A stretch of DNA of 64,000 bases from Eubacteriales bacterium. GTDB taxonomy: Bacteria; Bacillota; Clostridia; Oscillospirales; CAG-272. Below are positions 21,835 to 38,645 of the stretch, piece by piece. Below the pieces are notes generated by a model. It searched no databases, had not been told where the DNA came from, and saw only the letters and a list, made by a program, of their open reading frames with translations. The stretch is from contig JAZQHV010000026.1 of NCBI GenBank assembly GCA_045540755.1, positions 2,179 through 66,178 on the forward strand, written 5' to 3'. Every line of letters begins with the position of its first letter. The stretch's first letter is position 1. The position numbers and the translations under genes were made by a program.

Positions 21835-21844
21835 ACGCGAAAAA

Positions 21845-22085
21845 GAGAAGTTGCAGGAGAGTTGTTCCCCTTTGATCCCCTCATCCACCGTTAACACGGT
21901 CCCCCTTCCCCCGAGGGGGAAGGTAATACAGCGCACCAATAGCTTCCCCCCTCGGGGGAAGCTGTCACCGAAGGTGACTGATGAGGGGGTCAAAGACTTT
22001 CAACCTATTATTTATCGGTTGCATAGGTCGGGAGTAAACCCCCGCCCTACGGTTTGAACGCTTCGCCTTCAAACTATAATTTACC
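21845..22085. repeat. Two-site REP cassette B (degenerate GGAA left; two ATAG sites right)
   Basis: CCCTCATC/CTTCCCC-GGGGAAG doublet; sites AACCTATTATTTATC 22002-22016 and AAACTATAATTTACC 22071-22085 flank a CCCCGCCCTAC REP. Confidence 0.8.
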
Positions 22086-22143
22086 GTTTGCCTTATACAA
22101 AAATTTTCCAATATCATTTTACACAAAAATATCGCGAAAAACA

Positions 22144-22172
22144 TTTACACATGAAGCGTTTTGCGGTATAGT
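22144..22172 (+). promoter_or_regulatory. Putative sigma-A promoter of regulators 3-5
   Basis: TTTACA-17bp-TATAGT. Confidence 0.6.
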
Positions 22173-22201
22173 AAAGAAAAAGCAAAGAAGGAGGCGGCAG
22201 C

Positions 22202-23323
22202 GTGAAAGTCAAGATCTTCCTGCAATCGAATACCAAAAACGACTTCTGGATCCAACAAACGCAAAAAGCGCTTGCCGCAGAGATCCTGCGCAAACGGTAT
22301 ACCGCCGAATACATTGAGGCGCTCGATGTAAGTACGCTTGACCTCGACAGTCTCTTTGCCGCAGGTGAGCCGCGCGTGCTTCTCTACCTCGGCTACTCCA
22401 AGCTCGGCGCACCCAAAAATCTCACGCATCTTGTCGAGCGCGGTATCCATCCGATCCTCGTCAACAACGGACTTGCTAACTTTTCGGGCAGTTGTTCCCG
22501 TGTGTTCATCAACTATCGCGATGCCATCGAAAAAGCCATCGGCTACTACACGGAAAACGGGCGCAATCGCATCGCGCTCTACGGCATCAATCCCTCCTCA
22601 CCCACCGACAAGATCATGGAAAACTGCTTTGCCGACCACCTTGTCGCAAACGGTAAGGATCCTGCCCGTGACATCTACTACAACTATGCCTCCATCACGG
22701 CATGCTGTGCCGAATTTTTGCCGCACGCACGCGCATACAATGCCGTCATCTGCGCCAACAACATCGTCGCGGTGACGCTTCTCAGCAGTCTGCGCGCCGA
22801 GGGCATCCGTGTGCCGGAGGACATACAGCTCCTCTCTCTCGGCGTGTCTACTCTGCTTGCAGAGCAGGCGTCCGTGCCGATCACCACGGTCTCTGCCGAC
22901 CATGATTCCATCGCAAGGCAGGCGATCACCGCCTACACGCTTTTGCGAAAGTACAGCGGGGAGACAACGCTGACCATGCGCGTGGCTCCGCAGTTTCATA
23001 TCCGCGCCTCGACTGCATTTGCACCGTTGCCTGCTACCTTTTCCCCCGCGTTTCCCATCACCGAAAAAACGCCGTCGGTCAACTTTTACAAGGATCCCGT
23101 TGCCAAAGAGGTCTTTGCCGTGGAACAGCTTTTGCTTGGGTGCGATACGACCGATCTTGCGATTCTTACACGTCTGCGACAGGGCGTTTCCTACCCGAAG
23201 ATCGCCGACGAGCTCTTCACCTCGGTCAACACGGTCTCCTACCGTGTGAAACGGATGTGTCGCCTTGCAAAATGCGAGAGCAAAGAGGAGTTGATCGCAC
23301 GCATCTCCCTCTACCTGCAATAA
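22202..23323 (+). CDS. Regulator 3, same architecture
   Basis: GTG start after AAGGAGG; AVICANN, GIRVPEDI; GVSYPKIADELFTSVNTVSYRVKRM. Confidence 0.8.
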   Translation: MKVKIFLQSNTKNDFWIQQTQKALAAEILRKRYTAEYIEALDVSTLDLDSLFAAGEPRVLLYLGYSKLGAPKNLTHLVERGIHPILVNNGLANFSGSCSRVFINYRDAIEKAIGYYTENGRNRIALYGINPSSPTDKIMENCFADHLVANGKDPARDIYYNYASITACCAEFLPHARAYNAVICANNIVAVTLLSSLRAEGIRVPEDIQLLSLGVSTLLAEQASVPITTVSADHDSIARQAITAYTLLRKYSGETTLTMRVAPQFHIRASTAFAPLPATFSPAFPITEKTPSVNFYKDPVAKEVFAVEQLLLGCDTTDLAILTRLRQGVSYPKIADELFTSVNTVSYRVKRMCRLAKCESKEELIARISLYLQ

Positions 23324-23341
23324 AACGAAAGGAGCAGAATC

Positions 23342-24451
23342 TTGAACGTCCACATCTTTATCCACCCCAACGAACGCAATATGTTCTGGGCAAAGCGAAC
23401 GCAAAAAGCGATCGCCGCCGAGATCCTGCGCCGCCGTTTTACCGCCGATTATATCCATGCCGCCTCGGTGTGGGAGATCGACTTTGACAAGGTTTTTGCT
23501 AAAGATGAAAAGCGCGTGATCCTGTACATCGGCATCCAAACGCCGAACGAGATCGACTATCTGACCACGCACGGTGTGCACACCGTCCTTGTCAACAACG
23601 ATTTCGCCGACTACTCCGCCACGCACTCTCGCGTGCTCATCAATTACCGCAGTGCGCTCAACAAGGCCATGAGCTATCTACTTGCAAACGGGCGGGATCG
23701 CGTCGCGCTCTACGCAATCAATCTTGCCTCGGCGACCGACCGTATCATGGAAACGCGTTTTTCCGAGATCCTGCGTGCAAGCGGTGAGGAGCCCTCCCGC
23801 GACATCTACCACAACCGCACCTATATCAGCGAGTGCTACGCGCGTTTTGCGCCGCACCGCTCTGCCTACAATGCCGTGATCTGCGCAAACGATATTTCCG
23901 CCGTGGATCTGCGCCGCCGCCTTACCGCAGACGGCATCCGTGTCCCCGAGGATATGTTTATCCTTTCCTGCAGTCCTTCCTCTGTGCTTGTGGAACAAAA
24001 CGGCACCTCCATCACGACCATCTCCGCCTCCCGTGAGGAGATCGGCACACAAGCGATCTACATTTATTCCCTGTTGGCGCGCAATCCCACCGATATTACA
24101 CTTTCCGCGCACGTCGAACCCGTGCTCATCCCGCGCGCCTCGACCGCCTTTGCTCCCGAGCCGGAGAATCCGCTTCTGTTCGGCTATTATTCGCCGCACG
24201 TCGCGGCAAAATTCTACGAGGATCCCGTCACGCAGAGCTTTTTCAGTGTGGAAAACCTGCTCCTCCATCAGGATGACCTGGACCGCGCGATCATCGAGGG
24301 CTTGCTCGCAGGCGAAAGCTATTCGGCAATCGCCGAGCGCACCTACACGACCGCCAACATGATCACCTACCGCGTCAAAAGGATGTGTCGCCTGACAGGA
24401 TGCTCCGACCGTGCGGCATTGCTCACGCTTATCACGCCGTATCTGAAATAA
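23342..24451 (+). CDS. Regulator 4, same architecture
   Basis: TTG start after GAAAGGAG; AVICAND, GIRVPEDM; GESYSAIAERTYTTANMITYRVKRM. Confidence 0.8.
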   Translation: MNVHIFIHPNERNMFWAKRTQKAIAAEILRRRFTADYIHAASVWEIDFDKVFAKDEKRVILYIGIQTPNEIDYLTTHGVHTVLVNNDFADYSATHSRVLINYRSALNKAMSYLLANGRDRVALYAINLASATDRIMETRFSEILRASGEEPSRDIYHNRTYISECYARFAPHRSAYNAVICANDISAVDLRRRLTADGIRVPEDMFILSCSPSSVLVEQNGTSITTISASREEIGTQAIYIYSLLARNPTDITLSAHVEPVLIPRASTAFAPEPENPLLFGYYSPHVAAKFYEDPVTQSFFSVENLLLHQDDLDRAIIEGLLAGESYSAIAERTYTTANMITYRVKRMCRLTGCSDRAALLTLITPYLK

Positions 24452-24468
24452 CGAAAGGAGGTGCGCGC

Positions 24469-25587
24469 ATGCGGATCTTTATCTACGTACAGCCCGACGT
24501 CAAGGATACCTTTTGGACCAAGCAAACACAAAAGGCGATCGCGGCGGAGATCCTGCGCAAGCGCCACACCTCCGTATATCTGCACGGCGCGACCGCAAGC
24601 GAGATCGACCTTGACGCCGCTTACGCGGGCGAAGAAAAACGCATTCTTTTGTACGTCGGCACGTCGCTGAAAAAAACACCCGTTGACCTCGCCTTTCTCG
24701 CAGAGCACGGCGTACACATCATCCGCATACACAGCGGAAGCGACTCCTTCCCCGCCGACTGCTCCCGCGTTCTGCTCAACTATCACGATGCCATCGAAAA
24801 AGCCATCTGCTACCTTGTGGGAAACGGGCACGACCGCATTGCGCTTTTCGGTGTCAACCCCTATTCGCACACCGATATAGAGATGAAAAACCGTTTCTCG
24901 GCATATCTCCGTTCCAAGGGGGCATCCGCACAGCGCGATATCTACTACAGCCGCGCCTCGATCGCCGATTGCTACGCAAGCTTTTTCCCCTATTGTGCCG
25001 CGTACAACGCCGTCATCTGTGTCAACGACATGGCGGCGATCACGCTTTTGCACCGTCTGAAGGCAGACGGCGTGCGCGTACCCGAGGATCTCTATATCGT
25101 TTCCTGCGGACTCTCCTCGGTATTTGCCAATCACCCCTCCACCGCGATCACCTCGGTCTCTGCCGACCGTGACGCCATCAGCGCGCAGGCAGTCTTCGCC
25201 TACGCTACACTCCTGCGTGCCTCCGCCGACATCACGTTGAATCTGCGCGTAGCGGCAAAGCTGACCGTGCGTGCCTCCACCGACTTTGCCCCCATCCCTT
25301 GGGGGAAACGGTTTACGCCACACTCGTTTTCCCCCGTACCTATAGATTACTTCTCCGATCCCGCCGCCAAGCGGTTTTACAGCATTGAAAGTCTCCTGTC
25401 CTCCTGTGACGAGACCGATGCGGGCATCCTCGACGGTCTGCTCGTGGGTGAGAGCTACTCTGCCATCGCCGAGCGGCTGTTCACCTCGCGCAACATGGTC
25501 TCTTATCGCGTCAAGCGCATGTGCCGCCTGACCGAATCTGCCAACCGAGAGGATCTCGTCGCACTCCTTCGACCGTATCTGGAATAA
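24469..25587 (+). CDS. Regulator 5, same architecture
   Basis: ATG 24469 after GAAAGGAGG; AVICVND, GVRVPEDL; GESYSAIAERLFTSRNMVSYRVKRM. Confidence 0.8.
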   Translation: MRIFIYVQPDVKDTFWTKQTQKAIAAEILRKRHTSVYLHGATASEIDLDAAYAGEEKRILLYVGTSLKKTPVDLAFLAEHGVHIIRIHSGSDSFPADCSRVLLNYHDAIEKAICYLVGNGHDRIALFGVNPYSHTDIEMKNRFSAYLRSKGASAQRDIYYSRASIADCYASFFPYCAAYNAVICVNDMAAITLLHRLKADGVRVPEDLYIVSCGLSSVFANHPSTAITSVSADRDAISAQAVFAYATLLRASADITLNLRVAAKLTVRASTDFAPIPWGKRFTPHSFSPVPIDYFSDPAAKRFYSIESLLSSCDETDAGILDGLLVGESYSAIAERLFTSRNMVSYRVKRMCRLTESANREDLVALLRPYLE

Positions 25588-25613
25588 AAAAGCCGCCACC
25601 GGCGGCTTTTTTT
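25586..25613 (+). terminator. Intrinsic terminator
   Basis: AAAAAAGCCGCC-ACC-GGCGGCTTTTTTT. Confidence 0.8.
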
Positions 25614-25622
25614 GTTTGCAAA

Positions 25623-25852
25623 GTTAAATTAGTAGCGCTAAACCGTAGGGCGGGGGTTTATCTCCCGCCGTAAACGTAGCGCTAAATTATAGTTTGAAGT
25701 TGTTTGCGAAAAACCCCTCATCCGTCGCTAATGCGACACCTTCCCCCGAGGGGGAAGGTAATACAGCGCACCAATAGCTTCCCCCCGGGGGGAAGCTGTC
25801 ACCGAAGGTGACTGATGAGGGGGTCCAAGCCCCCTTCAACTTCCAATTTATT
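25623..25852. repeat. Two-site REP cassette C (ATAG, ATAG ... GGAA)
   Basis: Near reverse complement of cassette H without its 78-nt insert; GCTAAATTATAGTTT 25681-25695, AACTTCCAATTTATT 25838-25852. Confidence 0.85.
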
Positions 25853-25857
25853 GCGCG

Positions 25858-25885
25858 AAAAAGGAAGGCGAAAGCCTTCCTTTTT
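25858..25885 (-). terminator. Intrinsic terminator
   Basis: AAAAAGGAAGGC-GAAA-GCCTTCCTTTTT. Confidence 0.85.
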
Positions 25886-25892
25886 GCTTGTT

Positions 25893-27380
25893 CTATTCTT
25901 CGATCGACTGCATCATCTGGTTGATGAGGTCGATCATGCGTTCTGCGGAAACGCGATAGGTCTCGTACATCGAGGCAATGGGCGTGCGCGTGACGTAGAT
26001 CTGGGACATCTTCGAGTTGTAACTGCCGATCTTGTAGTATGCGCCAAGGTCAAAGACGTGCGTTGCATAGATGATATCCAGCATCTCGGCGCTTTCCTCA
26101 TCGCGGACGTATCTGCCGACCAGCGTCTGGTCGTAGAACGCAGGCGTGAGCAGGCGGAGTCCCTGATATGCCAGCTCCTCCAGCACAATGCCCGTGCGCT
26201 CGTAGTCCTTTGCCATCTTAGGTACGCAGACGAACTGCGAATGGAAGGCGCTGACCGCATGGCCAAAGCGCTCCTGATTTTCGTCCAGCTTGGGGTACGG
26301 CAGAATGCCGAAATCGGTCTCGCTGTCGCGGTGGCGCTCGACCGTTTCCACCAGCGTCATGTAGAACACCGCGCGATCCTCGTTGAAGATGGCATCGCGG
26401 TTGGGGTCCCACGTAGCAAGCAGGGTCGCTTTGCCCGTAACGTTGTCATATTGGTAGTTATAGGAATGTGCCTGGTCGAACACGAGGTCGAAATAGCGGT
26501 CATAGAGGTTGAGTACGCGCTCGTTGTAGAAGGTGAGGTGGATAAGTCCGTCCTCGCCGACCGAGGCAATGCGCTCACCCGAGCAGGCAAGGATCGCGGT
26601 GGTCGGGTCGTTCCATGTGAGGATGCCGTAACGGTCGTGCTCGTTATAGATGCCGTCCTGGTTGAGGTCCTCTCCCACGCTCTTGGCGATGCGCGCGTAG
26701 GACTCCATCGTCCACTCGTCGTCGCGGACGAGCTGATAAGGATCCTCAAGACCGTACTCCGCGATCATGTCCTTGTTGAAGAGGATCGCGTGGGTCATGA
26801 GGTTGTCCACGTGGCTGATGTCGCCCGTGGAATAGTACATTCTGCCGTTGACGGCGAGATCCGCGTTGGCGCGCTGATCCCAGTAGGGCTTCGTAAGATC
26901 GACGTAGGGCGTTTGGTTCAGGTCGTGCAGGTAGCCGCCGTAGGCAAGCGTTGCCACGTCGTACGGACCGATGGAGGCGGCGTCGTACAGACCTTCGCCC
27001 GCCATATAGTCGTTGTAGACGGTCTTAAAGCCCGTACCGCTTCCGTTGGTGGAGCCGAATTCGATGAGGTCTTCATCGACGATCTCCACGCCGTATTTTT
27101 CCTTCAGCAGTTCGTTGCGGCGGAAGATCGCCGTTTCCACTGCGGTGCCCTCCTCGCCCTCGGCGTGGAAGTCGTTGCGCTCGATGTTGGCGCTGACGAG
27201 GATGTTGAACGTGCCTGCGATGTCGACCGTTTCGGGATCGGGCAGGTCGGGGGAATACGCCTCGTCGGGAGATGCGGTCACGGGAGATGCAGGCGCCGTA
27301 GTCTCGGCGGGCGTGCCGCCGCACGCCGCAAGCGCAAGCAACATCAGCGCCGCAAGCAGAAGTGCAAGAAGTTTTTTCAT
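25893..27380 (-). CDS. Extracellular solute-binding lipoprotein, paralog 3
   Basis: Lipobox LAAC; FNKDMI, DLNQDG, DFGILPYPK, RDEESAEMLDII. Confidence 0.85.
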   Translation of the reverse strand: MKKLLALLLAALMLLALAACGGTPAETTAPASPVTASPDEAYSPDLPDPETVDIAGTFNILVSANIERNDFHAEGEEGTAVETAIFRRNELLKEKYGVEIVDEDLIEFGSTNGSGTGFKTVYNDYMAGEGLYDAASIGPYDVATLAYGGYLHDLNQTPYVDLTKPYWDQRANADLAVNGRMYYSTGDISHVDNLMTHAILFNKDMIAEYGLEDPYQLVRDDEWTMESYARIAKSVGEDLNQDGIYNEHDRYGILTWNDPTTAILACSGERIASVGEDGLIHLTFYNERVLNLYDRYFDLVFDQAHSYNYQYDNVTGKATLLATWDPNRDAIFNEDRAVFYMTLVETVERHRDSETDFGILPYPKLDENQERFGHAVSAFHSQFVCVPKMAKDYERTGIVLEELAYQGLRLLTPAFYDQTLVGRYVRDEESAEMLDIIYATHVFDLGAYYKIGSYNSKMSQIYVTRTPIASMYETYRVSAERMIDLINQMMQSIEE

Positions 27381-27400
27381 GATAGTCTCCTTTGTAGAGA

Positions 27401-27588
27401 GATAAATTGGAATTTGAAGGGGGAGTTAGTTTGGTAAAAAGGAATCCTCCACCCGCCAAAGGCGGGAGCCCCCTTTGACAAGGGAGCCTTGGTTTCATCG
27501 CATTTGAGCCTCCCTTGTTAAAGGGAGGGGGACCGTTTACGGTGGTGGGATTCTTCTTTCTCAAACAACTTTCAACCTATAATTTATC
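27401..27588. repeat. Two-site REP cassette D (GGAA ... ATAG)
   Basis: GATAAATTGGAATTT 27401-27415; CCCTTT..CAAGGGAG doublet; AACCTATAATTTATC 27574-27588. Confidence 0.85.
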
Positions 27589-27594
27589 GTTTGT

Positions 27595-29442
27595 TCAGTC
27601 GAGAATGACACTCGGCCAGCGGGAGGTGTCCACGCCGCCGACGCTTGTCATTGCATCTGCGGTGATGCCCTCGGCATCACGGTTGTACAGGATCGGCGAG
27701 ATGGAAAATGCGTTTCTGCCGAGCATGCCGACCGCACTGCGCGGCAGAGCGATCTCGTAGAGCACGCCTTCGTCGGTATCGCTGTTGTCACCGACCGTGC
27801 CATAGACCTTCACCGCCGCCTTGTCTGCGGCAAAGCTGCTCTTTTCAGTACCGCCCGTGACGTAAGAAACGGTCACGCCGCCGTCCATGTCCACGCGGAC
27901 GCGATAGAAACGGAAGGTATCCAGCGCAACGCAGATCTCGATCGCGTCGTCCGCCGTCAGGTAATTGTCAAGGCGGCTGACAAGGAAGTACAGATTTTCC
28001 GCATCGTGCGCGGTCTGTACCGTCATCTGCGCCTGCGTTTCGCTGCCGACAAAGTGTGCATCGGTGTTGGTACGCCACTCCATGCCGTCTCCGTCCACGG
28101 TGGCGGTCATTTTTTTCGCATTCGTGCGGTGATTGAGGTAAGAATGCTCCAGAATCAGCGCCGAAATATTGGTCACCTTATCCAGCCTTTGTGCGGCGGT
28201 GATGACCTCGTGCGTACCGACAAGCTCACAGCAGGTCCACATGCCTCTGCCCTCGGGCACGGTCACAAATTCAAAGGAGTCATACTCCTTGCCGTCGGGA
28301 CGGATCATGCGGCCGTAGAACAGCTTCTGACCGTCGTTATGGTAAGCGCAGTAGACCTCACCCGACGGGAAAGTGGCAAGGTACGGGCCTGCGCCCGTGA
28401 AATTCTCGCGGTAGTCGCTACCGTTTGTGGTCGCGCCGTCCTTAAGATCCTCCTCCCAGAGTCCGCCGTCGGCGCTGACCGTCATGCCGATCGTAAACTT
28501 GATGGGATCGAGGGTCTTGACCTCTGCCGCAAGGAGCGTTTTTCCATTATACAGGCGGGTCGCCGCAGGCATCTGCGCCGAGAACCACGGCAAAATGCCT
28601 GCCTCGGGCGCCTCGGTATGCGTTTTTCTGCCAACGTACTGGCTGAACGCGATAAAGGGCTGATAGTAGTTGGTGTCGCCCGCCTGTACGTTCGGCGTCC
28701 AGGTGTAGCCGCCGTCATCCGACCAGACAAGTCCGATCGCGCCCGCGCGGTGGTCGGCATCATAGCCGTACTTGCGCATGTAATAGGAGCCACTGGAGAA
28801 GTAGACCTCGATGCGGCCGTCGTCACGTTGCCAGATGAACGGCTCCCAGTTGCCGCCCGTATAGATACGGGTCGGCTCGCCCCACGTGATGGTGTTGTCG
28901 GCGGCGATGGTGCCGCGGCGCGTCCAGAGACCGCCGTGCTCGGGATACTGCACGCGCCCATCCGCGTTATTGAGGCGCAGATAGTACACGCAGAGGAGTT
29001 CTCCGTTGTCAAGCAGAGTCACGTCCACATTGACACCGCAGAACTTGTCCGTCTTGCCCGCAAGCGGGCCGTCGGGATAGGTAAATGCGTTTGCCACACT
29101 GTAATAGAGATATTCGGGCGCGCTCCAATGGATGCCGTCGGGCGAGGTACACCAGTAGAGATGCGTACCGATCTGCCCGTACATAAAGGTCATAAGGTAG
29201 AGGTCGTCCTTCAGCTTTTTCACGCGCGGGTAATACGCCATATCATAGCGCGTCTGCCCCGTAGAGGCGGACGAAAGGGTCAGCGACTCGCGGTAACTGC
29301 GCTCCAAAGAAGCGGTGGTGTAATCCTCGCCGACGTGGCTGTTTGTCACCGCCTCGGTGTTCAGCTCCTTGATCGTGGGGAGCTGCGCAAAAGCCGTGAG
29401 CGTGAGCAGTGCCGCAAAGAAAATGCAGAATAATTTCTTCAT
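27595..29442 (-). CDS. Secreted Asp-box (BNR) sialidase-like beta-propeller with C-terminal CBM9/DOMON-like domain, copy 1
   Basis: Signal peptide; YYPR, TSPDGIHW, WEP, SDDGGYTW; C-term TVDGDGMEW, AHDAENLYFLV, YEIALP. Confidence 0.7.
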   Translation of the reverse strand: MKKLFCIFFAALLTLTAFAQLPTIKELNTEAVTNSHVGEDYTTASLERSYRESLTLSSASTGQTRYDMAYYPRVKKLKDDLYLMTFMYGQIGTHLYWCTSPDGIHWSAPEYLYYSVANAFTYPDGPLAGKTDKFCGVNVDVTLLDNGELLCVYYLRLNNADGRVQYPEHGGLWTRRGTIAADNTITWGEPTRIYTGGNWEPFIWQRDDGRIEVYFSSGSYYMRKYGYDADHRAGAIGLVWSDDGGYTWTPNVQAGDTNYYQPFIAFSQYVGRKTHTEAPEAGILPWFSAQMPAATRLYNGKTLLAAEVKTLDPIKFTIGMTVSADGGLWEEDLKDGATTNGSDYRENFTGAGPYLATFPSGEVYCAYHNDGQKLFYGRMIRPDGKEYDSFEFVTVPEGRGMWTCCELVGTHEVITAAQRLDKVTNISALILEHSYLNHRTNAKKMTATVDGDGMEWRTNTDAHFVGSETQAQMTVQTAHDAENLYFLVSRLDNYLTADDAIEICVALDTFRFYRVRVDMDGGVTVSYVTGGTEKSSFAADKAAVKVYGTVGDNSDTDEGVLYEIALPRSAVGMLGRNAFSISPILYNRDAEGITADAMTSVGGVDTSRWPSVILD

Positions 29443-29451
29443 GGCGCCTCC

Positions 29452-31851
29452 TTACTTCACAAGCGTCGCCGTGGAAGTCGCGCCGTCCCATGCCACGGTT
29501 GCGCCCATTGCCTCCGCAACCACGCGGACGGGCAGGTAGGTGCGGCCGCTTTCGATGAATGCGGGTGCATCCAACGTGACGGTCTTGCCGTTAATGGAGG
29601 CAGTCGCGGCGCCGACCTTGATGGCAATATCAATGCCGTTTCCCTTGATGGTGACCGAGGAAGTCGCGCCGTCCCAGCCGACCGTGCCGCCGAGGTTCTC
29701 GGCTACGAAGCGGACGGGGAGCATGGTTCTGCCGCTTTTGATCATGGGTGCGGCATCCAGCGCCTTGGGCTCGCCGTTGACGTAAGCGGTCTTCTGCCCG
29801 ATGGTAAGGCGAAGCTCGGTAGCGTCTCCCGTGTATTCCACGACGGTGCCGCCGTTGTTTTCAATGGTAAATGCCGCCATCGCCGCCTTGGAGAGGATGG
29901 CAGTTCCCTTTTCCTCGATCACGAGGGTAAAGGTGGGCTTGACACCCGACTTTGCAAGAAACTGCACGGTATCGGTAACGACCAGCACGCCGCCGCGGCC
30001 GACGGTGAGGGTGTTCTTCGTGCCCTCCTGGAAAAGGTGGATGTTGTCAAAGGTCAATTCACTCACGAGGGTTAGGTTGATACCGTTCTTCAGGCGCAAC
30101 GCACCTGCGGGCGCATCGGCGGGCTGTGCGTTTCTGTAGTCCACGCCGCCGTACACTGCAGTGATGGTGGTGGGACCGTAGGTCTTGGCAAAGGTGTAGT
30201 TTGCCGTGATCGCCGCTCTGCCGACCGTGACGATGGTGCCGCCGTCGGGAATGAGACCGTAGCAATGCGTAGAGAGCGTACCGAAGCTCATCTTGGGAGT
30301 CTTCGGCGTAAGACCGTCGTTGTCATTGGTCGCGGAGGAATCGTAGTACACCACGCTGACGATGCCGTTCTGCGGGCCGTTGCCGTCCACCTTGGGCGGC
30401 TCGGGAATGGCAACCGTCTCTGCTTTATGTACTGCGGGCACAGGGCACTTTGCACCCATCACCCATGCGGAAAAGTCCAGACCTGCAAAGGTGTCCTTTT
30501 TTGCCATATCGGCAAGGGAAAATGCCTTGGCACCCGAAACGTCGTATGCCTCGACGTTGACGCCGACTGCGCGGGACGAGAGGTCGGCATAGAAGCAATT
30601 TTGCAGGTGGCGGATCTCGGTGCCTGCGGTGGTGCCGATGATACCGCCCTGATTTGCGCTATTGGAAACGATACCCGAAAGGAATACGCAGTTTTCAACG
30701 TGCACGCCACGGCTTCTGCCGAGAATACCGCCTGCCGCACCCGCCTCGACAGACGCGGTCACAAGACAGTTTTCGATCACGGAGGGAGCCTCCTCGCTGC
30801 CGTCCTCACTCTGTGCATAGCCGATGATGCCGCCTGCGTAGGTGCCGCCCTTGACACTGCCCGTTACGGTGCAGTTTTTGACAAAGGAGGCAGTGCCCTT
30901 GCAAGCACTGGCACGGAGGGAGTAGCCGATGATACCGCCCGCAAACTTGTTGCTCTCGACGTTACCGCTGACAAAGCAGTTTTCGATCTGCAAAGCACTG
31001 CTTGTCTTGGAAACGATCTCGGCACGGCCTGCGATACCGCCAACGTTGGGGAAATTGGACTCGGTCTTGTTGGTGTTGGTGCCGACGAGGTTACCCGTGT
31101 TCCGACAGGCATCGAGGATGACGGCACCTGCGTTGATGCGGAGGTAGCCGACGATGCCGCCGAAGCGGGCGCGGTCGTTTGAGGTATAGGTGATGTCCGC
31201 GCGGTTTTCACAACCGTTGACCGAAACGGCAGGATGGCACTCGGTCTGCACCTGAATGCGGCCGAGCACGCCGCCGTGGTTACCGTAAGTACAAGACAGC
31301 TCGCCCTCGTTTACGCAGTCCGTGATCTCCACGGGGGCAACGCCGTAGTTGTGCGCGATGCCGACCACGCCGCCGAGATTACAGGGACCGATGACCTTGG
31401 CCTTGTTGACACAGTTGATCACAGAGGTGCCCGTCATGGCAATGCCGACCACGCCGCCCGTTGCGCAGTAGTTGCCGCCGAACTTGGTCTCGGCATTGGT
31501 GGCGGCCGCCGCGTTGCGCACCTCGCCCGCGACGGTGAGATTTTCGATGAGCGCACCCTCGGTAACGGCAAACAGACCTGCACACTCGGTGCCGATGACC
31601 TGCACGGTCACGGTAAAGCCGTTTCCGTCAAAGTGGCCGCTGTAGGGCTTTGCATAGTTACCGATGGGAAGCTGTGCCTTGCCCGTGAGGTCGATGTCCG
31701 CAGTGAGGGTAAAGTCCTCGCCCCAGCGGTTCGGATCGTTCATCACGGCAACAAGCTCCTCTGCCGTGCCGATCTTTGCCGCCGATGCGCCAAAGGCAAG
31801 CGCAAGCACAAGGATCGCCGCCAAAGCAGCGTACAAGCATACTCTTTTCAT
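29452..31851 (-). CDS. Secreted GLUG-repeat protein with C-terminal copper-amine-oxidase N-terminal (stalk) domain, copy 1
   Basis: LTADIDL, FDGNG, repeated GG(I/V)(V/I)G..NC motifs; C-term GRTMLPVRFVAENLG, GRTYLPVRVVAE; ATG 31851 after GGAGG. Confidence 0.75.
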   Translation of the reverse strand: MKRVCLYAALAAILVLALAFGASAAKIGTAEELVAVMNDPNRWGEDFTLTADIDLTGKAQLPIGNYAKPYSGHFDGNGFTVTVQVIGTECAGLFAVTEGALIENLTVAGEVRNAAAATNAETKFGGNYCATGGVVGIAMTGTSVINCVNKAKVIGPCNLGGVVGIAHNYGVAPVEITDCVNEGELSCTYGNHGGVLGRIQVQTECHPAVSVNGCENRADITYTSNDRARFGGIVGYLRINAGAVILDACRNTGNLVGTNTNKTESNFPNVGGIAGRAEIVSKTSSALQIENCFVSGNVESNKFAGGIIGYSLRASACKGTASFVKNCTVTGSVKGGTYAGGIIGYAQSEDGSEEAPSVIENCLVTASVEAGAAGGILGRSRGVHVENCVFLSGIVSNSANQGGIIGTTAGTEIRHLQNCFYADLSSRAVGVNVEAYDVSGAKAFSLADMAKKDTFAGLDFSAWVMGAKCPVPAVHKAETVAIPEPPKVDGNGPQNGIVSVVYYDSSATNDNDGLTPKTPKMSFGTLSTHCYGLIPDGGTIVTVGRAAITANYTFAKTYGPTTITAVYGGVDYRNAQPADAPAGALRLKNGINLTLVSELTFDNIHLFQEGTKNTLTVGRGGVLVVTDTVQFLAKSGVKPTFTLVIEEKGTAILSKAAMAAFTIENNGGTVVEYTGDATELRLTIGQKTAYVNGEPKALDAAPMIKSGRTMLPVRFVAENLGGTVGWDGATSSVTIKGNGIDIAIKVGAATASINGKTVTLDAPAFIESGRTYLPVRVVAEAMGATVAWDGATSTATLVK

Positions 31852-31970
31852 GGGATACCTCCGAAGAATATTTCTACAATTATATAATACCATTTCCGTT
31901 TTGCACCGTCAACTCGAAAATCCGCTTCAAAATCCGCAGTAAAAATCCACAAAGTCGGAGGGGTAAATGC

Positions 31971-32210
31971 GACAAATTATAGTTTAGCGCGTAGCGCTAA
32001 ACCGTAGGGGCGATTATAATGCGACCGCAGGTCGCTATATCGCCACGCGGGCGACCGCTGGTCGCCCCTACAATAATTTGTAAAAAGGGCGGACACGCGC
32101 CGACCTTTTTACTCCTTAAAGGGGCGCGCACGGTTGAGTGCGGCGCGAGCGAACGCCCCTCCCCACTTGAAAACGCTTGCGTTTTCAAGTGATATAACTT
32201 CCAATTTATC
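31971..32210. repeat. Two-site REP cassette E (ATAG ... GGAA)
   Basis: GACAAATTATAGTTT 31971-31985; GTAGGGGCG...GTCGCCCCTAC doublet and CACTTGAAAACGC-TT-GCGTTTTCAAGTG hairpin; AACTTCCAATTTATC 32196-32210. Confidence 0.85.
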
Positions 32211-32214
32211 GCGC

Positions 32215-32244
32215 AAAAAAAGGAAGGCTCAAGCCTTCCTTTTT
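32215..32244 (-). terminator. Intrinsic terminator
   Basis: AAAAAGGAAGGCT-CA-AGCCTTCCTTTTT, paralog of 25858-25885. Confidence 0.85.
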
Positions 32245-32254
32245 GCTTCTTTTC

Positions 32255-33742
32255 TTATTCTCCGATCGACTGCATGCTTGCGTTGATGATCTTGATCATC
32301 TGCTCTGCGGAAGTGCGATAGGTCTCGTACATCGAGGACAGAGGCGTGCGGTCGCGATGCTGTGCTTTGATCTTGGTCTCATAGCTACCGACCTTGTAAT
32401 AGGAGCCAAGGTCGTAAACACGCGTTGCAAACACGATATCCAGCATATCCACACTCTCTTCGTCGCGGACGTATCTGCCGACGAGCGACTGCTCATAGTA
32501 TGCAGGTGTCATCAGCTGGAGTCCCTGATATGCCAGCTCCTCGAGCACGATGCCGCTGCGCTCGTAATCCTTTGCCATTTCGGGCACGCAGATAAACTGC
32601 ACGTGGTACGCGCTGATGCTATGACCGTACTCCTCCTGCTCGGCGTCCATCTTGGGATACGGCAGGATGCCGAAGTCGGTCTGGCTGTCACGGTAGCGCT
32701 CTACGGCACCCATGGTCTGCATGTAGAAGAGGACGCGGCTCTCATTGAACATGGCGTCACGGTTCGTATCCCATGCGGCAGTAGAGGGCACGGTGCCGGT
32801 GTTTGCATCATACTGATAGCTGAAGCAATGCGCCTGATCGTATGCAAGCTCGCGGTAGCGGTCAAACAAGTTGACCACACGCTCGCTGTACAGTGTCAGC
32901 GCGATCTCGCCGCTCTCTTTCACCGAGCAGATCTTCTCCCCTGCCGCCGCAAGAATACCCATCCAGGCATCGTTCCAGGTCAGAATGCCGTACTTGTCCT
33001 TTTCGTCATAGATACCGTCCTGATTGACGTCCTCGCTGACCGCCTTGCCGAGGCGGGAGAAGCTCTCCAGCGTCCACTCGTTGTCGCGGACAAGCGTATA
33101 CGGGTCATCCAGTGCATATTCGTCTACGATATCCTTGTTGAAGAGGATCGCCATCGTGCAGACGTTATCGTTGAACGCAATATCGCCGGTGGTGTAATAC
33201 ATCTTGCCGCCGATCGCAAGGTCGGCGTTTGCCTTCTGATCCCAATAGGGCTTCGAAAGGTCGATGTACGGCGTATCGTTCAGGTCGTGCAGATATCCGC
33301 TGTAGGACAGGGTCGCGATATCGTATGCGCCGATCGAAGCGGCATCATACGCGCCCTCGCCTGCCATATAGTCGTTGTAAATGGTGGTAAAGCCTGTGCC
33401 GCTGCCGGTGATGGAGCCGAACTTGGAAATGTTATCGTTCACGATCTCCACGCCGTACTTTTCCGCCAGCACTGCGTTTCTGCGATGGATCGCGATCTGC
33501 ACGGCAGTTCCCTCGGAATTTCCCTCGAAGTCGTCGCGTGCGGAGTTGCCGCTGACGAGAATGCGGAATTCGCCGTCGATGTCAAGCGACTTGGGATCGG
33601 GCAGTTCGGGCGCGCCGTCATCGGGCGCATCGGTGCTGACTGCCGCATCGGAGGATGCGGTCGTCTCGGCGGGCGTGCCGCCGCATGCCGCAAGCGCAAG
33701 AAGTATTGCAAGTGCAAGAAGCGTTGCAAGAAGTTTTTTCAT
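32255..33742 (-). CDS. Extracellular solute-binding lipoprotein, paralog 4
   Basis: Lipobox LAAC; closest to 25893..27380 (GGTPAETTA, GRYVRDEES). Confidence 0.85.
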   Translation of the reverse strand: MKKLLATLLALAILLALAACGGTPAETTASSDAAVSTDAPDDGAPELPDPKSLDIDGEFRILVSGNSARDDFEGNSEGTAVQIAIHRRNAVLAEKYGVEIVNDNISKFGSITGSGTGFTTIYNDYMAGEGAYDAASIGAYDIATLSYSGYLHDLNDTPYIDLSKPYWDQKANADLAIGGKMYYTTGDIAFNDNVCTMAILFNKDIVDEYALDDPYTLVRDNEWTLESFSRLGKAVSEDVNQDGIYDEKDKYGILTWNDAWMGILAAAGEKICSVKESGEIALTLYSERVVNLFDRYRELAYDQAHCFSYQYDANTGTVPSTAAWDTNRDAMFNESRVLFYMQTMGAVERYRDSQTDFGILPYPKMDAEQEEYGHSISAYHVQFICVPEMAKDYERSGIVLEELAYQGLQLMTPAYYEQSLVGRYVRDEESVDMLDIVFATRVYDLGSYYKVGSYETKIKAQHRDRTPLSSMYETYRTSAEQMIKIINASMQSIGE

Positions 33743-33762
33743 GATAGTCTCCTTTGTAAAAA

Positions 33763-34059
33763 GAGAAATTGGAATTTGAAAGACTTTCAGTTCAAAGATC
33801 CCTCACATACGTTCGGGATGACAAGCCGAGGTTGCTTTAGGGTGCTTTAGTTTGTCATTCCGAGCAACGCGAGGAATCTGCGAACAAGAGCGATAAATTG
33901 GAAGTTGTTTGGCAAAGAACCCCTCATCACCCGCTCCGCGGGAGCTTCCCCCCAGGGGGAAGCTATTCGTGCGCTGTATTACCTTCCCCCTCGGGGGAAG
34001 GTGGCGGCGAAGCCGTCGGATGAGGGGTTTTTCGCGTCCTCTTCAAACTATAATTTATC
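33763..34059. repeat. Two-site REP cassette F (GGAA, GGAA ... ATAG)
   Basis: Sites at 33763-33777, 33892-33906, 34045-34059; cargo 1 AGATCCCTC..GGATGACA/TGTCATTCC..GGAATCT doublet; cargo 2 CCCTCATC/GGGGAAG doublet. Confidence 0.85.
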
Positions 34060-34065
34060 GTTTGT

Positions 34066-35910
34066 TCAGTCGAGAATCACGCTCGGCCAGCGGTCGGTAA
34101 CGACGGAGCTGACGCCGTTCAGCTGATCAAAGAATACACCCTCGCCGTCCACGTTCATGAGCGTGGGAGACAGCGTAAAGGAGGTCGCATTCGCGATGCC
34201 GAGAGTCGCCTTGGGCAATGCAAGCTCGATGCATACGCCCTCGTCGGTGTCGCCGTTATTATCCACGGTGCCGACCGTGCGGACGGCCGCCTTGCCGCCG
34301 TCAAACGTAGCGACGGTCGCCGCATTGCGGATCTGCGATACGGTGACCTTGCCGTCTGCCGCGATCTCCACGCGCATAAAGCGCAAAGGCGTGGTGCCGA
34401 CGTTCAGCGTAACGGTGTCGCCGCTTGTCAGATAGTTGTCGAGACGGTTGATGCAGAAGTAGACGTTGTCCTTGTCGTGCGCGGTCTGCACGGTCATCTG
34501 TGCCTGCGATGCCGAGCCGACAAAGAGCGCATCTGTATTATTCTTCCACTCGCCGTCCTTGCCGTCGAGCGTGGGGGTCATTTTCTTTGCATTGGTGCGG
34601 TGATTGAGGTAGAGGTGCGCGATCAACACGCCCGAAACGTCGGTGGTGTTGTTCAGTTTTTGCACCACGTTGATGACCTCGTGCCCCGTGATCGGCTCCA
34701 GAGCGCCCCACATGCCGTTACCGTCGCGAACAGCACGGAGCTCGAGCGGATCGAATTCTTTTCCGTCGGGCGAGCCCATCTTGTAATAGAACTTGGAGCC
34801 TGCGCCGCGGTGATAGGTCATAAGCACTTCGCCCGAGGGGAAGGTGGCAAGATACGGGCCTGCGCCGAGGTAATTCTCGCGATAGTCGCTTCCGTTTGTG
34901 GTCGCGCCGTCCTGTAGGTCGTGCTCCCAGAAGCCGCCAGGGCCGCTGACCGTGTGCGACAGCGTAAACGAGCCGCTGAGCAGTTTGACCTCAGCCGCAA
35001 GCAGAGTTCTGCCGTCGTACAGTCTCGTTGCCGAGGGCATCTGTGCACAACCCCATGGAAGCTCGCCAAGGTCGGGCTGCTCGGTATGCACCTTGTTGCC
35101 GACGAACTGGCTGAACGCCATGAAGGGCTGATAATAGTTGGTGTCACCCGGCTGAATATTCGGCGTCCAGGTGTAGCCGTTGTCGTCCGACCAGATCAGC
35201 GCGGTACCGTTGGAGCGGTGCTCGCTGTCGCGGCCGTACTTGCGAATATGATACGTACCGCAGGACCAGTAGATTTCGATACGGCCGTCCTCGCGTTGCC
35301 AGATGAAAGGCTCCCATCCCGAGCCGTAGTACACCTGCTTGTGCTCGCCCCAGGTGATCTTTCCGTCTGCACTGATCGTACCGCGGACAACGACCACGCC
35401 GCAATGCTCGGGATAGGTAGCGTAGCCCTTGCTGACGCGGATGGTGTAGGTAGCAAGGATCTCGCCGTTTTTGAGGTGCACGGCATCGGCGTTCACCGCC
35501 ATAAAGGTGTCCTTGTAGCCGTCAAAGGGCCCGCCCGAAAGGACGATCTTTTTGTCGGAATTGTCGTAGAAATACTGCGGCTTTTCCCAGTTGACGCCAT
35601 CCTTACTGGTGGTCCAGAAGATGTCGCCGCCCGTGGAAGTACCGTGGAAGAAGAGCAGATACAAGTCCTCGCGGAGCTTGAGCAATCGCGGATAATACGC
35701 CTTGTTGTACTCGGTGTAGCCCGTGGTCATGTAGTTCAGCACCACCTGCTCACGGTAATTCTCCTCCATGGAAGCAGTTTTGTAATCATCGGCAAGGTGG
35801 CTGCCCGCCGTTGCCACGGTGTTCAGCTCCTTGACGGTGGTCAGCTCTGCGGCAGAAACTGCCGTAAGCAGCAGCCATGCCGCAAGCAACAGAGTCAGAG
35901 TTTTTTTCAT
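34066..35910 (-). CDS. Secreted Asp-box sialidase-like propeller plus CBM9-like domain, copy 2
   Basis: YYPR, TSKDGVNW, SDDNGYTW; colinear with 27595..29442 (WEPFIWQR, GAGPYLATFPSGEV, WPSVILD). Confidence 0.7.
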   Translation of the reverse strand: MKKTLTLLLAAWLLLTAVSAAELTTVKELNTVATAGSHLADDYKTASMEENYREQVVLNYMTTGYTEYNKAYYPRLLKLREDLYLLFFHGTSTGGDIFWTTSKDGVNWEKPQYFYDNSDKKIVLSGGPFDGYKDTFMAVNADAVHLKNGEILATYTIRVSKGYATYPEHCGVVVVRGTISADGKITWGEHKQVYYGSGWEPFIWQREDGRIEIYWSCGTYHIRKYGRDSEHRSNGTALIWSDDNGYTWTPNIQPGDTNYYQPFMAFSQFVGNKVHTEQPDLGELPWGCAQMPSATRLYDGRTLLAAEVKLLSGSFTLSHTVSGPGGFWEHDLQDGATTNGSDYRENYLGAGPYLATFPSGEVLMTYHRGAGSKFYYKMGSPDGKEFDPLELRAVRDGNGMWGALEPITGHEVINVVQKLNNTTDVSGVLIAHLYLNHRTNAKKMTPTLDGKDGEWKNNTDALFVGSASQAQMTVQTAHDKDNVYFCINRLDNYLTSGDTVTLNVGTTPLRFMRVEIAADGKVTVSQIRNAATVATFDGGKAAVRTVGTVDNNGDTDEGVCIELALPKATLGIANATSFTLSPTLMNVDGEGVFFDQLNGVSSVVTDRWPSVILD

Positions 35911-35919
35911 GGCGCCTCC

Positions 35920-38319
35920 TTATTTCGTGAGGGTTGCCGTGGAGGTCGCACCGTCCCAGGCTACGGTTGCGCCCATTGCCTCCGCAACCACGCGGACGGG
36001 CAGGTAGGTACGGCTGTTTTCAATAAAGGCAGGCGCATCCAGCTTGACGGTCTTGCCGTTGATCCATGCGGTGTCCGCGCCGACCTTGATAGCAATGTCG
36101 ATGTTATCGCCCTTGATGGTGACCGAGGAGGTCGTGCCGTCCCAACCCACCGTGCCGCCGAGATTCTCGGCTACAAAGCGGACGGGAAGCATCGTTCTGC
36201 CGCTCTTGATGACGGGTGCCGCATCCAGTGTCTTTGCACTGCCGTTGACGTAGCCCGTGAGCTTGCCGATGGTGAGCTTCAGTTCAGTGCCGCCCGCATA
36301 CTCGGTGACAAGTCCTCCCTCGTTGACGATGGTGAACTTCTGCATTGCCTCCTTGGAGAGGATCGCGGTTGCGCCCTCCTCTACGACCAGCTTGTAGTGG
36401 TAGTCGAGGCCGGGCTTGGAGAGAAGCTGTACGGTGTCGGTAACGACAAGGTTGCCACCGTTCTGCACGAGGATGGTGTTCTGATTGCCCATCTGGAACA
36501 GGATGATGTTGTCGAAGGTGAGGTCACTGCAAAGAGTGAGCGTGAGGCCGCTGTTGATATTGAAGCAACCTGCGGGCTTGTCTGCGGGCAGAGGATTGCG
36601 GTAGTCCACGCCGTCCCATACAGAGGTGATGGTGACGGGGCCGTAGGTCTTGGCGAAGGTGTAGTTGGAGGGGATATTGGAGTTGCCCACGCAGACGATG
36701 ACGCCGCCGTTCTGAATCATGCTGTACAGATGCGTGGACATCGTGCCGAAGGTCTGCTTGGGGGTCTTCGGCGTGAGTCCGTCGTTATCGTTGGTGGCGT
36801 CGCGGTCGTGGAATACGACCGTGGGGCTTCCCTCTGCGGGGCCGTCGCCCTCCACTTCAAACTGGGAGAGGTCGCCGACGGTGATGATGATCTCCACGTT
36901 CTGCATTGCCTTGGGAACGGGGCATTTGTCGCCCATGACCCACGTATCAAAGTTCAGTGAGCCAAAGGTCTCCTTTTTCGCGGCCGCCTTGGTATCAAAC
37001 GCCGCACTGCCGCTGTCGGTGTTGGTCTCCGCGATGGTGCCCGTTGCGGCGCGGTTGATGTTCGGATAATAGGAAGCGCTGATGTCGCAGGGGATCGCGC
37101 CTGCGGCAACGCCGACAAGACCGCCCATGCCAGCCTGCGAGTACGCACGGCTGACCGAGATGCAGTTGATGACGTTCACGCCGCGCTGACGGCCGAGCAT
37201 ACCGCCGCCCGCGCTGACACCGTCCACAGGCGCGGTGTTCAGACAGTTCTGTACGGTGACCGCAGTCTGCGAATCGGTGTAGGCAACGATACCGCCCGCC
37301 TGCGCGCCGGTACTCGTGACCGTGCCGACATTCACGCAGTTATCGTAGATCACCTCATAGAATTTGCCCTCGGCACCGATGCCGTGGTAGCCGGTGATAC
37401 CGCCCGCATAGCGAGAGGAAAGAATATTACCCTTGTTGTAGCAGTTGATAACGTCCATGCCTGCGCTGATGTGCGACTGCACCTCCGAGCGGCCGACGAT
37501 ACCGCCGAGCGATACGTAGTGCGTGGAGGAGGAAGCATTGTTCTGCGCGTCGAGATTACCGTAGTTCGCACAGCCCTCGATATGTACCGAGCCCTGATTG
37601 ATACGCAGGTAGCCGGCGATACCGCCGCAACGTGCGCGGTCGGTGGAGGTGTAGGTGATATCGGCGTAGTTTGTGCAGTTCAGCACCGTGAGCGCGGGGG
37701 CTGCGGCGTTGGTCATACGGCCTCTGCCGATGATGCCGCCGAGGTTACCGTATGCGCAGGTGAAAGTGCCGCGGTTGACACAGTCCACAACGGTGACGGC
37801 AGACGTGCCGCCGTGCGCAACGATGCCGATGATACCGCCCACGTTACAGGGGCCGATGACGGTTGCCTCGTTGGTACATTTCTCTACGGTTACGCCCTGA
37901 AACGCAGTGCCGACGACGGCGCCGACAGCCACGTAGTAGTCGCCCACCTTGACCTCCGCATTCTGTGCGGGATAGTTACACTGTACGGTGCCCTTGACCG
38001 TAACGTTCATGATCGTGGCATCCTTTGCCGCACCGATGAGACCGACCGTGCCGTTCATCGACACGAGGTTCAACGTAACGGTGTGTCCCTTGCCGTCAAA
38101 GGTGCCGGTATACGGCTTTTCAAACGTGCCGATCGGCTGCTGTACCTTGCCGCTAAGGTCGATGTCTGCCGTCAGCGTGATGTCCTCGTCCCAGCGAGAG
38201 GTGTCGGACATGATGGCGACAAGCTCGTCGGCAGTGCCGACGTTTACTGCCGATGCCGTGAGCAGCATTGCCGCCGCAAGCACAAGCATAAGCCAAGCGA
38301 AAGAAAAAAGCTTTTTCAT
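35920..38319 (-). CDS. Secreted GLUG-repeat protein with stalk domain, copy 2
   Basis: Colinear with 29452..31851 (ATNDNDGLTPKTPK, near-identical C-terminus); ATG 38319. Confidence 0.75.
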   Translation of the reverse strand: MKKLFSFAWLMLVLAAAMLLTASAVNVGTADELVAIMSDTSRWDEDITLTADIDLSGKVQQPIGTFEKPYTGTFDGKGHTVTLNLVSMNGTVGLIGAAKDATIMNVTVKGTVQCNYPAQNAEVKVGDYYVAVGAVVGTAFQGVTVEKCTNEATVIGPCNVGGIIGIVAHGGTSAVTVVDCVNRGTFTCAYGNLGGIIGRGRMTNAAAPALTVLNCTNYADITYTSTDRARCGGIAGYLRINQGSVHIEGCANYGNLDAQNNASSSTHYVSLGGIVGRSEVQSHISAGMDVINCYNKGNILSSRYAGGITGYHGIGAEGKFYEVIYDNCVNVGTVTSTGAQAGGIVAYTDSQTAVTVQNCLNTAPVDGVSAGGGMLGRQRGVNVINCISVSRAYSQAGMGGLVGVAAGAIPCDISASYYPNINRAATGTIAETNTDSGSAAFDTKAAAKKETFGSLNFDTWVMGDKCPVPKAMQNVEIIITVGDLSQFEVEGDGPAEGSPTVVFHDRDATNDNDGLTPKTPKQTFGTMSTHLYSMIQNGGVIVCVGNSNIPSNYTFAKTYGPVTITSVWDGVDYRNPLPADKPAGCFNINSGLTLTLCSDLTFDNIILFQMGNQNTILVQNGGNLVVTDTVQLLSKPGLDYHYKLVVEEGATAILSKEAMQKFTIVNEGGLVTEYAGGTELKLTIGKLTGYVNGSAKTLDAAPVIKSGRTMLPVRFVAENLGGTVGWDGTTSSVTIKGDNIDIAIKVGADTAWINGKTVKLDAPAFIENSRTYLPVRVVAEAMGATVAWDGATSTATLTK

Positions 38320-38430
38320 GGAAACCACCTCATTGTATAGTTTTCTATCATAATTATATAATAGAACACGTTCCGCTTCAACACAAAGTTTTTTGTAAAA
38401 ATCCGTACCTCTCATCGGACAAAGCGAAAA

Positions 38431-38613
38431 GATAGATTATAGTTTAAAAAGTACCAATCCCTCAGTCAGCTAACGCTGACAGCTCCCTTTACACAAGGGA
38501 GCCTTGGTTTGATCGTATTTTAGCCTCCCTTGTGTAAAGGGAGGTGGCGCCGACAGGCGACGGAAGGATTGGTCTATACCAAACTAACTCCCCTTTCAAC
38601 TTCCCAATTTATC
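38431..38613. repeat. Two-site REP cassette G (ATAG ... GGGAA variant)
   Basis: GATAGATTATAGTTT 38431-38445; CTCCCTTTACACAAGGGAG doublet; AACTTCCCAATTTATC 38598-38613. Confidence 0.85.
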
Positions 38614-38617
38614 TTGC

Positions 38618-38645
38618 AAAAAAGCACCCTTTCGGGTGCTTTTTT
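38618..38645 (-). terminator. Intrinsic terminator
   Basis: AAAAAAGCACCCTTTCGGGTGCTTTTTT, identical to 3904-3931. Confidence 0.85.

Follow-up and report, generated by a model that had tools for sequence, protein, structure and literature searches.

How do corresponding gaps in two copies of an old gene cassette come to have nearly identical edges around different contents? The question is raised by a 64,000-nt stretch of DNA (the window), part of contig C26 in a 2.33-Mb metagenome-assembled genome (MAG) of an Eubacteriales bacterium, which comprises 93 contigs, is ~70% complete and has 53% G+C. The window carries two paralogous three-gene cassettes in the order BIG-PROP-SBP, both on the minus strand, and the gaps in question are four slots, two beside the SBP terminators (C and E) and two between PROP and SBP (D and F). 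A first-pass annotation had taken the shared edges for sites at which cargo was replaced after the duplication. We consider it likely that slots C, D, E and F hold members of one dispersed, non-coding, hairpin-forming repeat family, whose units resemble miniature inverted-repeat transposable elements (MITEs) and whose mosaic build resembles bacterial interspersed mosaic elements (BIMEs). The genes of the cassettes are as follows.

25893 to 27380, minus strand: SBP1, open reading frame (ORF) of cassette 1 for a lipoprotein-type solute-binding protein (SBP) of 495 aa, with weak Pfam matches only
27595 to 29442, minus strand: PROP1, BNR-like propeller protein of 615 aa, with a BNR_2 match below the cut-off
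29452 to 31893, minus strand: BIG1, GLUG / Cu_amine_oxidN1 protein of 813 aa
32255 to 33742, minus strand: SBP2, 495 aa, cassette 2
34066 to 35910, minus strand: PROP2, 614 aa, cassette 2
35920 to 38415, minus strand: BIG2, 831 aa, cassette 2

Between the cassettes, the proteins are 54% (BIG), 54% (PROP) and 66% (SBP) identical and the DNA is 60%, 61% and 70% identical, respectively, with no long stretch of raised identity.

Contents of the slots and anatomy of the repeat

The edges of slots D and F had been quoted exactly. Their left flanks are identical at 53 of 56 positions (27363-27418 versus 33725-33780) and their right flanks at 54 of 62 (27571-27632 versus 34042-34103), and the distances between the outer ends, 188 bp in D (27401-27588) and 297 bp in F (33763-34059), equal the lengths given in the first-pass annotation. 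Similarity stops just inside the sites, as had been claimed: at E ≤ 1e-3, blastn linked 27381-27418 to 33743-33780 (92% over 38 nt) and 27571-27594 to 34042-34065 (96% over 24 nt), and found nothing between the interiors beyond these two end sites. The D interior can be aligned weakly but significantly, in the same orientation, with the right-hand unit of F (z-score 6.3; 0 of 500 mononucleotide shuffles scored as well). Slots C and E are likewise alike outside and different inside. On the SBP side, 25838-25892 and 32196-32251, which span the SBP terminator and the adjoining site, match at 50 of 56 positions (89%) and then diverge, and the interiors are not alignable (z 0.8; 104 of 500 shuffles scored as well). 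Alignable interiors, which the annotation had named as evidence against its own reading, were found for D and the right-hand unit of F and not for C and E.

The doublets reported inside D and F are present as letters, but they are inverted repeats, that is, hairpin arms, and not direct ones. The reverse complement of CAAGGGAG at 27479 in slot D lies at 27510, and that of CCCTCATC at 33921 in slot F lies at 34019; TGTCATTCC at 33853 in slot F has an imperfect partner only (arms 33813-33824 and 33852-33863, 92% complementary). The left and right sites of D are themselves inverted copies (arms 27401-27418 and 27571-27588, 18 nt, 78% complementary), and ATAAATTNNANNTTGAA with at most one mismatch has 11 matches in the window versus 0.01 expected.

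The sites recur throughout the genome. Allowing three mismatches to either of two 19-mers, we counted 87 distinct ends versus 0 for reversed controls, and a strict expression for the end has 51 copies. Where two neighbouring ends lie within 500 nt of each other, they face inward in 9 cases, point the same way in 4 and face outward in none. All 10 inward-facing pairs examined (9 distinct right ends) join an A end, with the consensus (a)aaRCGATAAATTATAGkTTGAAG, to a B end, with the consensus ..CGATAAATTGGAAkTTGAAG; the two types are told apart by their middle, ATAG in A and GGAA in B. Since inverted copies recur genome-wide, the sites are terminal modules of a repeat family and not features of the cassettes. 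The proposal that they are fixed slots providing an internal control thus fails on the 87 dispersed ends and on the travelling of ends with cores described below.

A unit consists of two inverted AT-rich ends of ~20-24 nt, a short linker and a GC-rich near-palindromic core. Complete units measure 172-297 bp, and several core subfamilies have the same ends in common. The site is centred on a 12-nt quasi-palindrome, AAATTggAATTT, and conservation of the end reaches ~5 nt past TAAATT (consensus aaRCGA), after which the sequence is random. As in a MITE in the strict sense, the units are small, non-coding, multicopy and dispersed, and terminal inverted repeats lie at the boundary between repeat and unique sequence, as indicated by the arms of D, the drop in conservation and the limit of homology between D and its relative on contig C9. 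Slots C, E and F are site-module-site arrays and show the variable module combinations of BIME and BOX elements. An Rfam 15 scan of 21500-49000 returned three matches, all far below the gathering scores. In many outer flanks an intrinsic terminator lies 10-25 nt from the end, and other copies stand just upstream of gene starts. As many as 35 of the 87 ends are within 200 nt of a contig end, and the repeat family therefore breaks this assembly.

An A-end variant with six extra letters, TAAATTATAGTTT-AGCGAT-GAAG, echoes an AGCGAT just outside the end and was seen at C5:150, C15:9332, C15:2215, C85:6859, C89:53550 and C23:5117. In one contig from a public sequencing run (X2), the same six letters are inserted behind window position 25694.

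The slots, to which no strand is assigned, and a further member of the family contain the following elements.

25588 to 25892: slot C, with the terminator of the upstream regulator, a GC hairpin module (~25632-25680), an A..B element and the SBP1 terminator hairpin (25858-25885)
25681 to 25699 and 25834 to 25852: A end and B end, respectively, of the complete element in slot C, subfamily '1b'
27396 to 27594: slot D, one complete B..A element with its B end at 27401-27419 and its A end at 27570-27588
31971 to 32211: slot E, a composite of an A-like end (31971-31989), a palindromic core (32004-32071) and a second core (32072-32192)
32193 to 32211: B-end variant TATAACTTCCAATTTATCG of slot E, followed by the SBP2 terminator at 32217-32244
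33763 to 34059: slot F, two units, namely an outer B end (33763-33781) with a low-copy palindromic core 'X' (~33782-33886), then a complete B..A unit
33892 to 33907 and 34041 to 34059: B end and A end, respectively, of the inner unit of slot F, which has a type-1 core
38431 to 38614, no strand assigned: further family member (A..B) upstream of cassette 2, between the terminator of the neighbouring gene and the BIG2 promoter region

Each slot has close relatives at unrelated loci. The whole composite of slot C is 89% identical to C15:9164-9436, and its unit is 96-97.5% identical to the contig-internal copies C15:2114-2271 and C26:44032-44327 (contig coordinates). Slot D takes up the space from the PROP1 stop codon to a point ~20 nt short of the SBP1 start. 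Over 195 nt it matches C9:12725-12918 at 95.9% identity; the homology takes in both ends and stops at unrelated flanks. As single-stranded DNA, D folds end to end (-37.1 kcal/mol, z -3.95). Relatives of slot E were found at C5:5110-5251 (96.5% identity with 32072-32212) and C89:80118-80219 (92% with 32040-32142), and in slot F, 33889-34060 is 91% identical to C10:7035-6869, its core (33901-34027) being 94-95% identical to at least 10 copies. The cores in C, D, E and F are thus 91-97% identical to copies elsewhere, compared with 60-70% for the cassette DNA, and the present cores are therefore far younger than the duplication. Judged by these identities, the comparison shows the cores of the four slots to have arrived, or to have been homogenised, long after the cassettes were duplicated. 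The first-pass annotation, in which cargo replacement followed the duplication, is borne out in its timing; replacement as the mechanism is unproven.

One copy of the slot-C element, at 41854-42149 of the window, is split mid-way by ~75 nt of other repeated sequence, and its halves are each 96% identical to 25632-25743 and 25744-25851, respectively. The ~75-nt insert is present in several other copies too.

Occurrence in other genomes and likeness to known repeats

The exact motif has 36 matches in the source genome versus 0-1 in each of 40 relatives, 18 of them from the same genus; the one match among the relatives, in G004, is a complete unit. We scanned species representatives for the end motif and obtained at least 118 loci. 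Among the loci listed, most are single matches in unrelated taxa and compatible with chance, a few MAGs have several matches at contig ends, and L042 alone resembles slot sequence (81% over 88 nt). High copy numbers were found in the following MAGs, counting the 19-nt end with one mismatch allowed (controls, 0-1) and keeping the depositors' taxon labels.

G041, Akkermansia sp.: 208 ends
G043, Clostridia (RGIG3994): 104 ends
G042, Faecousia sp.: 42 ends
G045, Acutalibacteraceae: 27 ends
G044, Bacteroidales: 23 ends

The same end bounds units of 150 and ~450-520 bp in G041, ~400 bp in G043 and ~340 bp in G045. The interiors are unrelated, and a D-like arm (81% over 88 nt) is held in common by G045 only. 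Searches of a paper library by sequence string and keyword found no description of the end motif. A scan of metagenome contigs for the shared flank TTCATGATAGTCTCCTTTGT gave 24 loci, none cassette-like beyond the pattern and 2 with a blast match (22-25 nt).

Several arrangements were seen at individual loci. In G042, units of ~187 bp bounded by the 19-mer with TTGAAG facing outward were found at L209, L212 and L213 (also L207, L210 and L211). At L041, L099, L127 and L137, in other MAGs, a single end immediately precedes a ribosome-binding site and start codon, its TTGAAG leading into a GGAGG-like sequence, and at L099 two ends abut back to back. On the viral contigs of L229 and L233, two ends 1.82 kb apart flank a 434-aa ORF, and a 425-aa ORF lies beyond one end.

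MITEs are known from bacteria, for example the Correia elements of Neisseria and RUP of Streptococcus pneumoniae. The present units resemble them in being small (172-297 bp), non-coding, multicopy and intergenic, in having inverted ends that allow folding into one long hairpin, and in combining several unrelated interiors with the same ends. They differ from MITEs in that their two ends are systematically unlike (A versus B) and the polarity is reversed in another genome; in addition, no target-site duplication was seen and no parent insertion sequence was found. With REPINs, the paired repetitive extragenic palindromes (REPs) mobilised by Y1 transposases of the RAYT (REP-associated tyrosine transposase) type, they have in common cores made of paired inverted GC-rich hairpin repeats and an expansion confined to one species; REPINs, however, lack AT-rich terminal modules. 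The assembly contains one gene matching PF01797 (Y1, IS200/RAYT-like), at C34:22792-23124 (L139; 259 aa) in a low-G+C stretch. This gene is flanked by its own inverted AACCGTCCCCTGTGTT repeats, which have 11 copies in the genome and are unrelated to the end family, so a RAYT gene flanked by the same REP sequences, as a REPIN system requires, is not what we found. E. coli BIMEs and pneumococcal BOX elements are similar in forming mosaic arrays of alternating GC-rich palindromes and short conserved motifs, combined differently at different loci and located in intercistronic gaps and behind terminators. They have no sequence relationship to the present family, however, and the AT-rich motif is kept across phyla here, which is unexpected for the site of a host factor.

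Pairing of ends and cores and the alternatives

That the sites stayed in place while cargo changed, as the first-pass annotation had it, was not established. The B end of slot E reads TATAACTTCCAATTTATCG where CTTCAACTTCC... is usual. Copies of this core at C5 and C44 carry the same variant, and near-variants were seen at C12 and C89; the end of the inner unit of slot F matches its own subfamily. Since end variants track the core subfamily, the ends largely arrive with the cargo, and the homology between D and its C9 relative accordingly includes both ends. The pairing is not strict. In a set of 32 type-1 anchors, no hairpin variant is restricted to one end type, and the hairpin adjoining the A end of F is joined to a B end in 12 of 13 aligned copies, F being the 13th. 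This mosaic pairing indicates that members of the family have recombined or that the palindromic core has flipped.

The most probable account is a MITE- or BIME-like interspersed repeat family whose ends were mistaken for docking sites and whose cores were mistaken for cargo. A trans-acting enzyme with specificity for the ends may move its units. It may be that the slots already contained an element when the two cassettes last had their short flanks in common, and that recombination with other copies of the family later overwrote the interiors; alternatively, separate insertions may have taken place at the few positions that spare the stop codon, the ribosome-binding site and the terminator. 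We regard overwriting of an occupied slot as somewhat likelier than independent insertion. The four propeller-to-SBP spacers found in congeneric species are ~40 nt long, AT-rich and free of the repeat; there would thus be few permissive positions between the stop codon and the ribosome-binding site, which makes repeated insertion less surprising. By a rough estimate rather than a calculation, independent insertion at the same point might have a chance of about 1 in 7 in the case of D/F and a lower one in that of C/E. Inheritance of an occupied slot with later turnover is favoured by the mosaic pairing, by the coincident junctions and the B end of D, both described below, and by unusually similar host-side flanks: SBP1 and SBP2 agree at 19 of 19 nt of the 5' untranslated region, throughout the initial 18 nt of the coding sequence and at 41 of 44 nt around the lipobox, where other paralogues differ.

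A number of observations weigh against this account, and the first four of them fit resident sites better. In all 3 cases open to comparison (D/F on either side, C/E on the SBP side), the junctions fall on exactly the same nucleotide, as the annotation expected, although the C/E breakpoint falls inside the site and not at its edge; at other loci, the spacing between terminator and end varies (~7 to 22 nt). The B end of D is closer to the outer B end of F than to that of its 96% relative on C9, and neither side of a type-1 core at C74:16466 shows a recognisable A or B end. In G042, the 19-mer bounds units of the opposite polarity, with TTGAAG outward, at all 3 loci (of 10 fetched) at which two facing sites were scored, which is awkward for a simple model of terminal inverted repeats or transposon tips. 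No consistent direct repeat that could be a target-site duplication was seen in 12 complete copies (11 independent, since D and F share flanks), where a 2-nt TA or AT duplication within the palindromic CGATA...TATCG would be masked. An empty or alternative state was not seen for any slot: 20 of 24 listed public sequencing runs hold 20-38% of the sampled words, and the four runs compared (X1-X4, from four studies) gave short contigs that end at repeat borders and bridge no slot. Finally, the transposase families PF13358, PF07282, PF01609 and PF02371 have 0 matches each in the 70%-complete assembly, and a search, not exhaustive, between distant inward-facing end pairs (G000, G041, G042, G043 and two viral contigs) found no transposase.

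The ORFs lying between distant ends were compared with Pfam for the source-genome set and listed for the other genomes; those of the source genome matched SpoIIE, phage portal, a beta-lactamase-family domain, fumarase or nothing. A transposase-encoding parent element was found neither in the assembly nor at the examined loci of five other MAGs or at 34 viral-contig loci. MAGs lose insertion sequences, and with an incomplete assembly the absence of an enzyme is thus not established. Three further observations concern these data. TTTGT near both junctions of D and F is a possible 5-nt duplication, a single observation with a chance expectation of ~0.2. One X4 contig has 236 letters left of 27595 that do not fit D at 88% likeness and one X3 contig reaches 27436; neither was used as evidence. 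Contig joints in the public runs link different repeat copies and were disregarded.

The coincident junctions could also be explained if 20-nt quasi-palindromic sites (CGAT-AAATTnnAATTT-GAAG) were resident in the chromosome and a recombinase swapped or inserted GC-rich hairpin modules at them, as in pdif modules or integron cassettes. Such exchange would fit junctions that are identical in both cassettes around different interiors, the existence of site-module-site-module arrays, the mosaic combinations of ends and cores, the core without ends on C74, the keeping of one site with unrelated interiors across MAGs labelled as three phyla, and the polarity in G042, which a symmetric, dimer-bound site would tolerate. 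In pdif modules and integron cassettes, too, the same short site accompanies different content, and sites are inverted around a module and shared by neighbours. Here, however, the content is non-coding hairpins of 100-250 nt and not genes, the site is ~20 nt and not 28, it does not match dif by eye, and neither a recombinase nor a link to Xer or an integrase was seen, none having been searched for. Moreover, end variants follow core subfamilies, homology between copies covers the whole sites and 5-8 nt beyond, no solo site was seen at an orthologous position (the four congeneric spacers have no sites), and inverted sites would yield inversion, not excision. We consider exchange between resident sites unlikely. 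A broader version, in which the 20-nt site would be the working site of a recombination system spread horizontally among gut bacteria, with modules inserted, exchanged or flipped, is improbable as well; if true, it would account at once for the identical junctions with different cores, the arrays with shared sites, the mosaicism and the polarity in G042. A likeness of the site to dif or hix was considered and dropped, as no convincing match was seen by eye.

Two further alternatives were considered. One element present between propeller and SBP before the duplication may have diverged in situ, so that D and the right-hand unit of F would be its descendants, relatives elsewhere would be recent copies of them and nothing would have been replaced. 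The alignment of these two interiors in the same orientation, at an identity compatible with the age of the cassettes, and the identical junctions agree with such descent. Against it, the F core is 94-95% identical to at least 10 copies of the most abundant subfamily, of all of which one old resident could hardly be the source; F has the extra unit X; C and E cannot be aligned; and conservation of the ends is far higher than it could be had they diverged neutrally with the cassettes. We consider divergence in situ very unlikely. The repeats might instead serve the host, the AT-rich motif binding a host protein and the hairpins acting on the mRNA as stabiliser, attenuator or terminator, with spread and maintenance by recombination and selection rather than transposition. 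Units do lie inside an operon and beside terminators and ribosome-binding sites, their folding is strong, their build is modular and BIME-like, and subfamilies appear, as read by eye and with no statistics, to keep hairpins while the stem sequence changes. The gap in copy number between the source genome and its 40 relatives and the high copy number of the same motif in unrelated phyla argue instead for a mobile origin, and no Rfam family was matched at threshold. A host-functional origin is accordingly given little weight, and a mobile repeat family remains the preferred reading.

Operon context and meaning of the family

Upstream of BIG1 we found one promoter-like site with 10 of 12 matches.

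31884 to 31912, minus strand: promoter-like site, TTGACG-17-TATTAT

None was found inside slots D or F, and the two slots are therefore probably transcribed within the operon message. In that message, each would probably fold into a large hairpin placed immediately before the ribosome-binding site of SBP. The candidate role of the repeat ends as carriers of an outward promoter was dropped, D and F having no promoter-like site.

The SBP and the propeller belong to large gene families. The source genome has 21 matches to SBP relatives and 15 to propeller relatives, the gene order BIG-PROP-SBP occurs twice in the whole assembly, and the closest paralogue of SBP1 is a copy on contig C82 (71-72% aa identity), not SBP2. 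No orthologous BIG-PROP-SBP triple was found among the loci fetched from the genus, in which the SBP and propeller families are large and paralogous; very large SBP and BNR-propeller families were seen in 19 of 19 and 18 of 19 genomes searched, respectively, with the two genes often adjacent and separated by ~40 nt. Elsewhere in the window, a tandem row of four genes (20704-25587; compared with Pfam as three tandem copies and one ending at 25587) encodes proteins in which a Peripla_BP_3 sugar-binding domain is present, and some of which have a helix-turn-helix (HTH) at the C terminus, where an N-terminal LacI HTH is usual. A 490-aa ORF with a Beta-lactamase2 family domain (E 3.5e-35) at 38644-40116 adjoins a fumarate hydratase ORF.

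Since the shared sites belong to a repeat family, they are by themselves no proof of a cargo swap at fixed docking points, and it is for the most part unremarkable that corresponding gaps of two old gene copies contain different members. For the genome, the family matters in that it breaks the assembly and fills operon-internal and terminator-proximal gaps, and thereby affects annotation and operon models. Beyond it, a ~20-nt end recurring at 23-208 copies across phyla offers a handle for finding the enzyme that may move such elements in animal guts. The cross-phylum end motif and the reversal of its polarity are the parts most worth following up.

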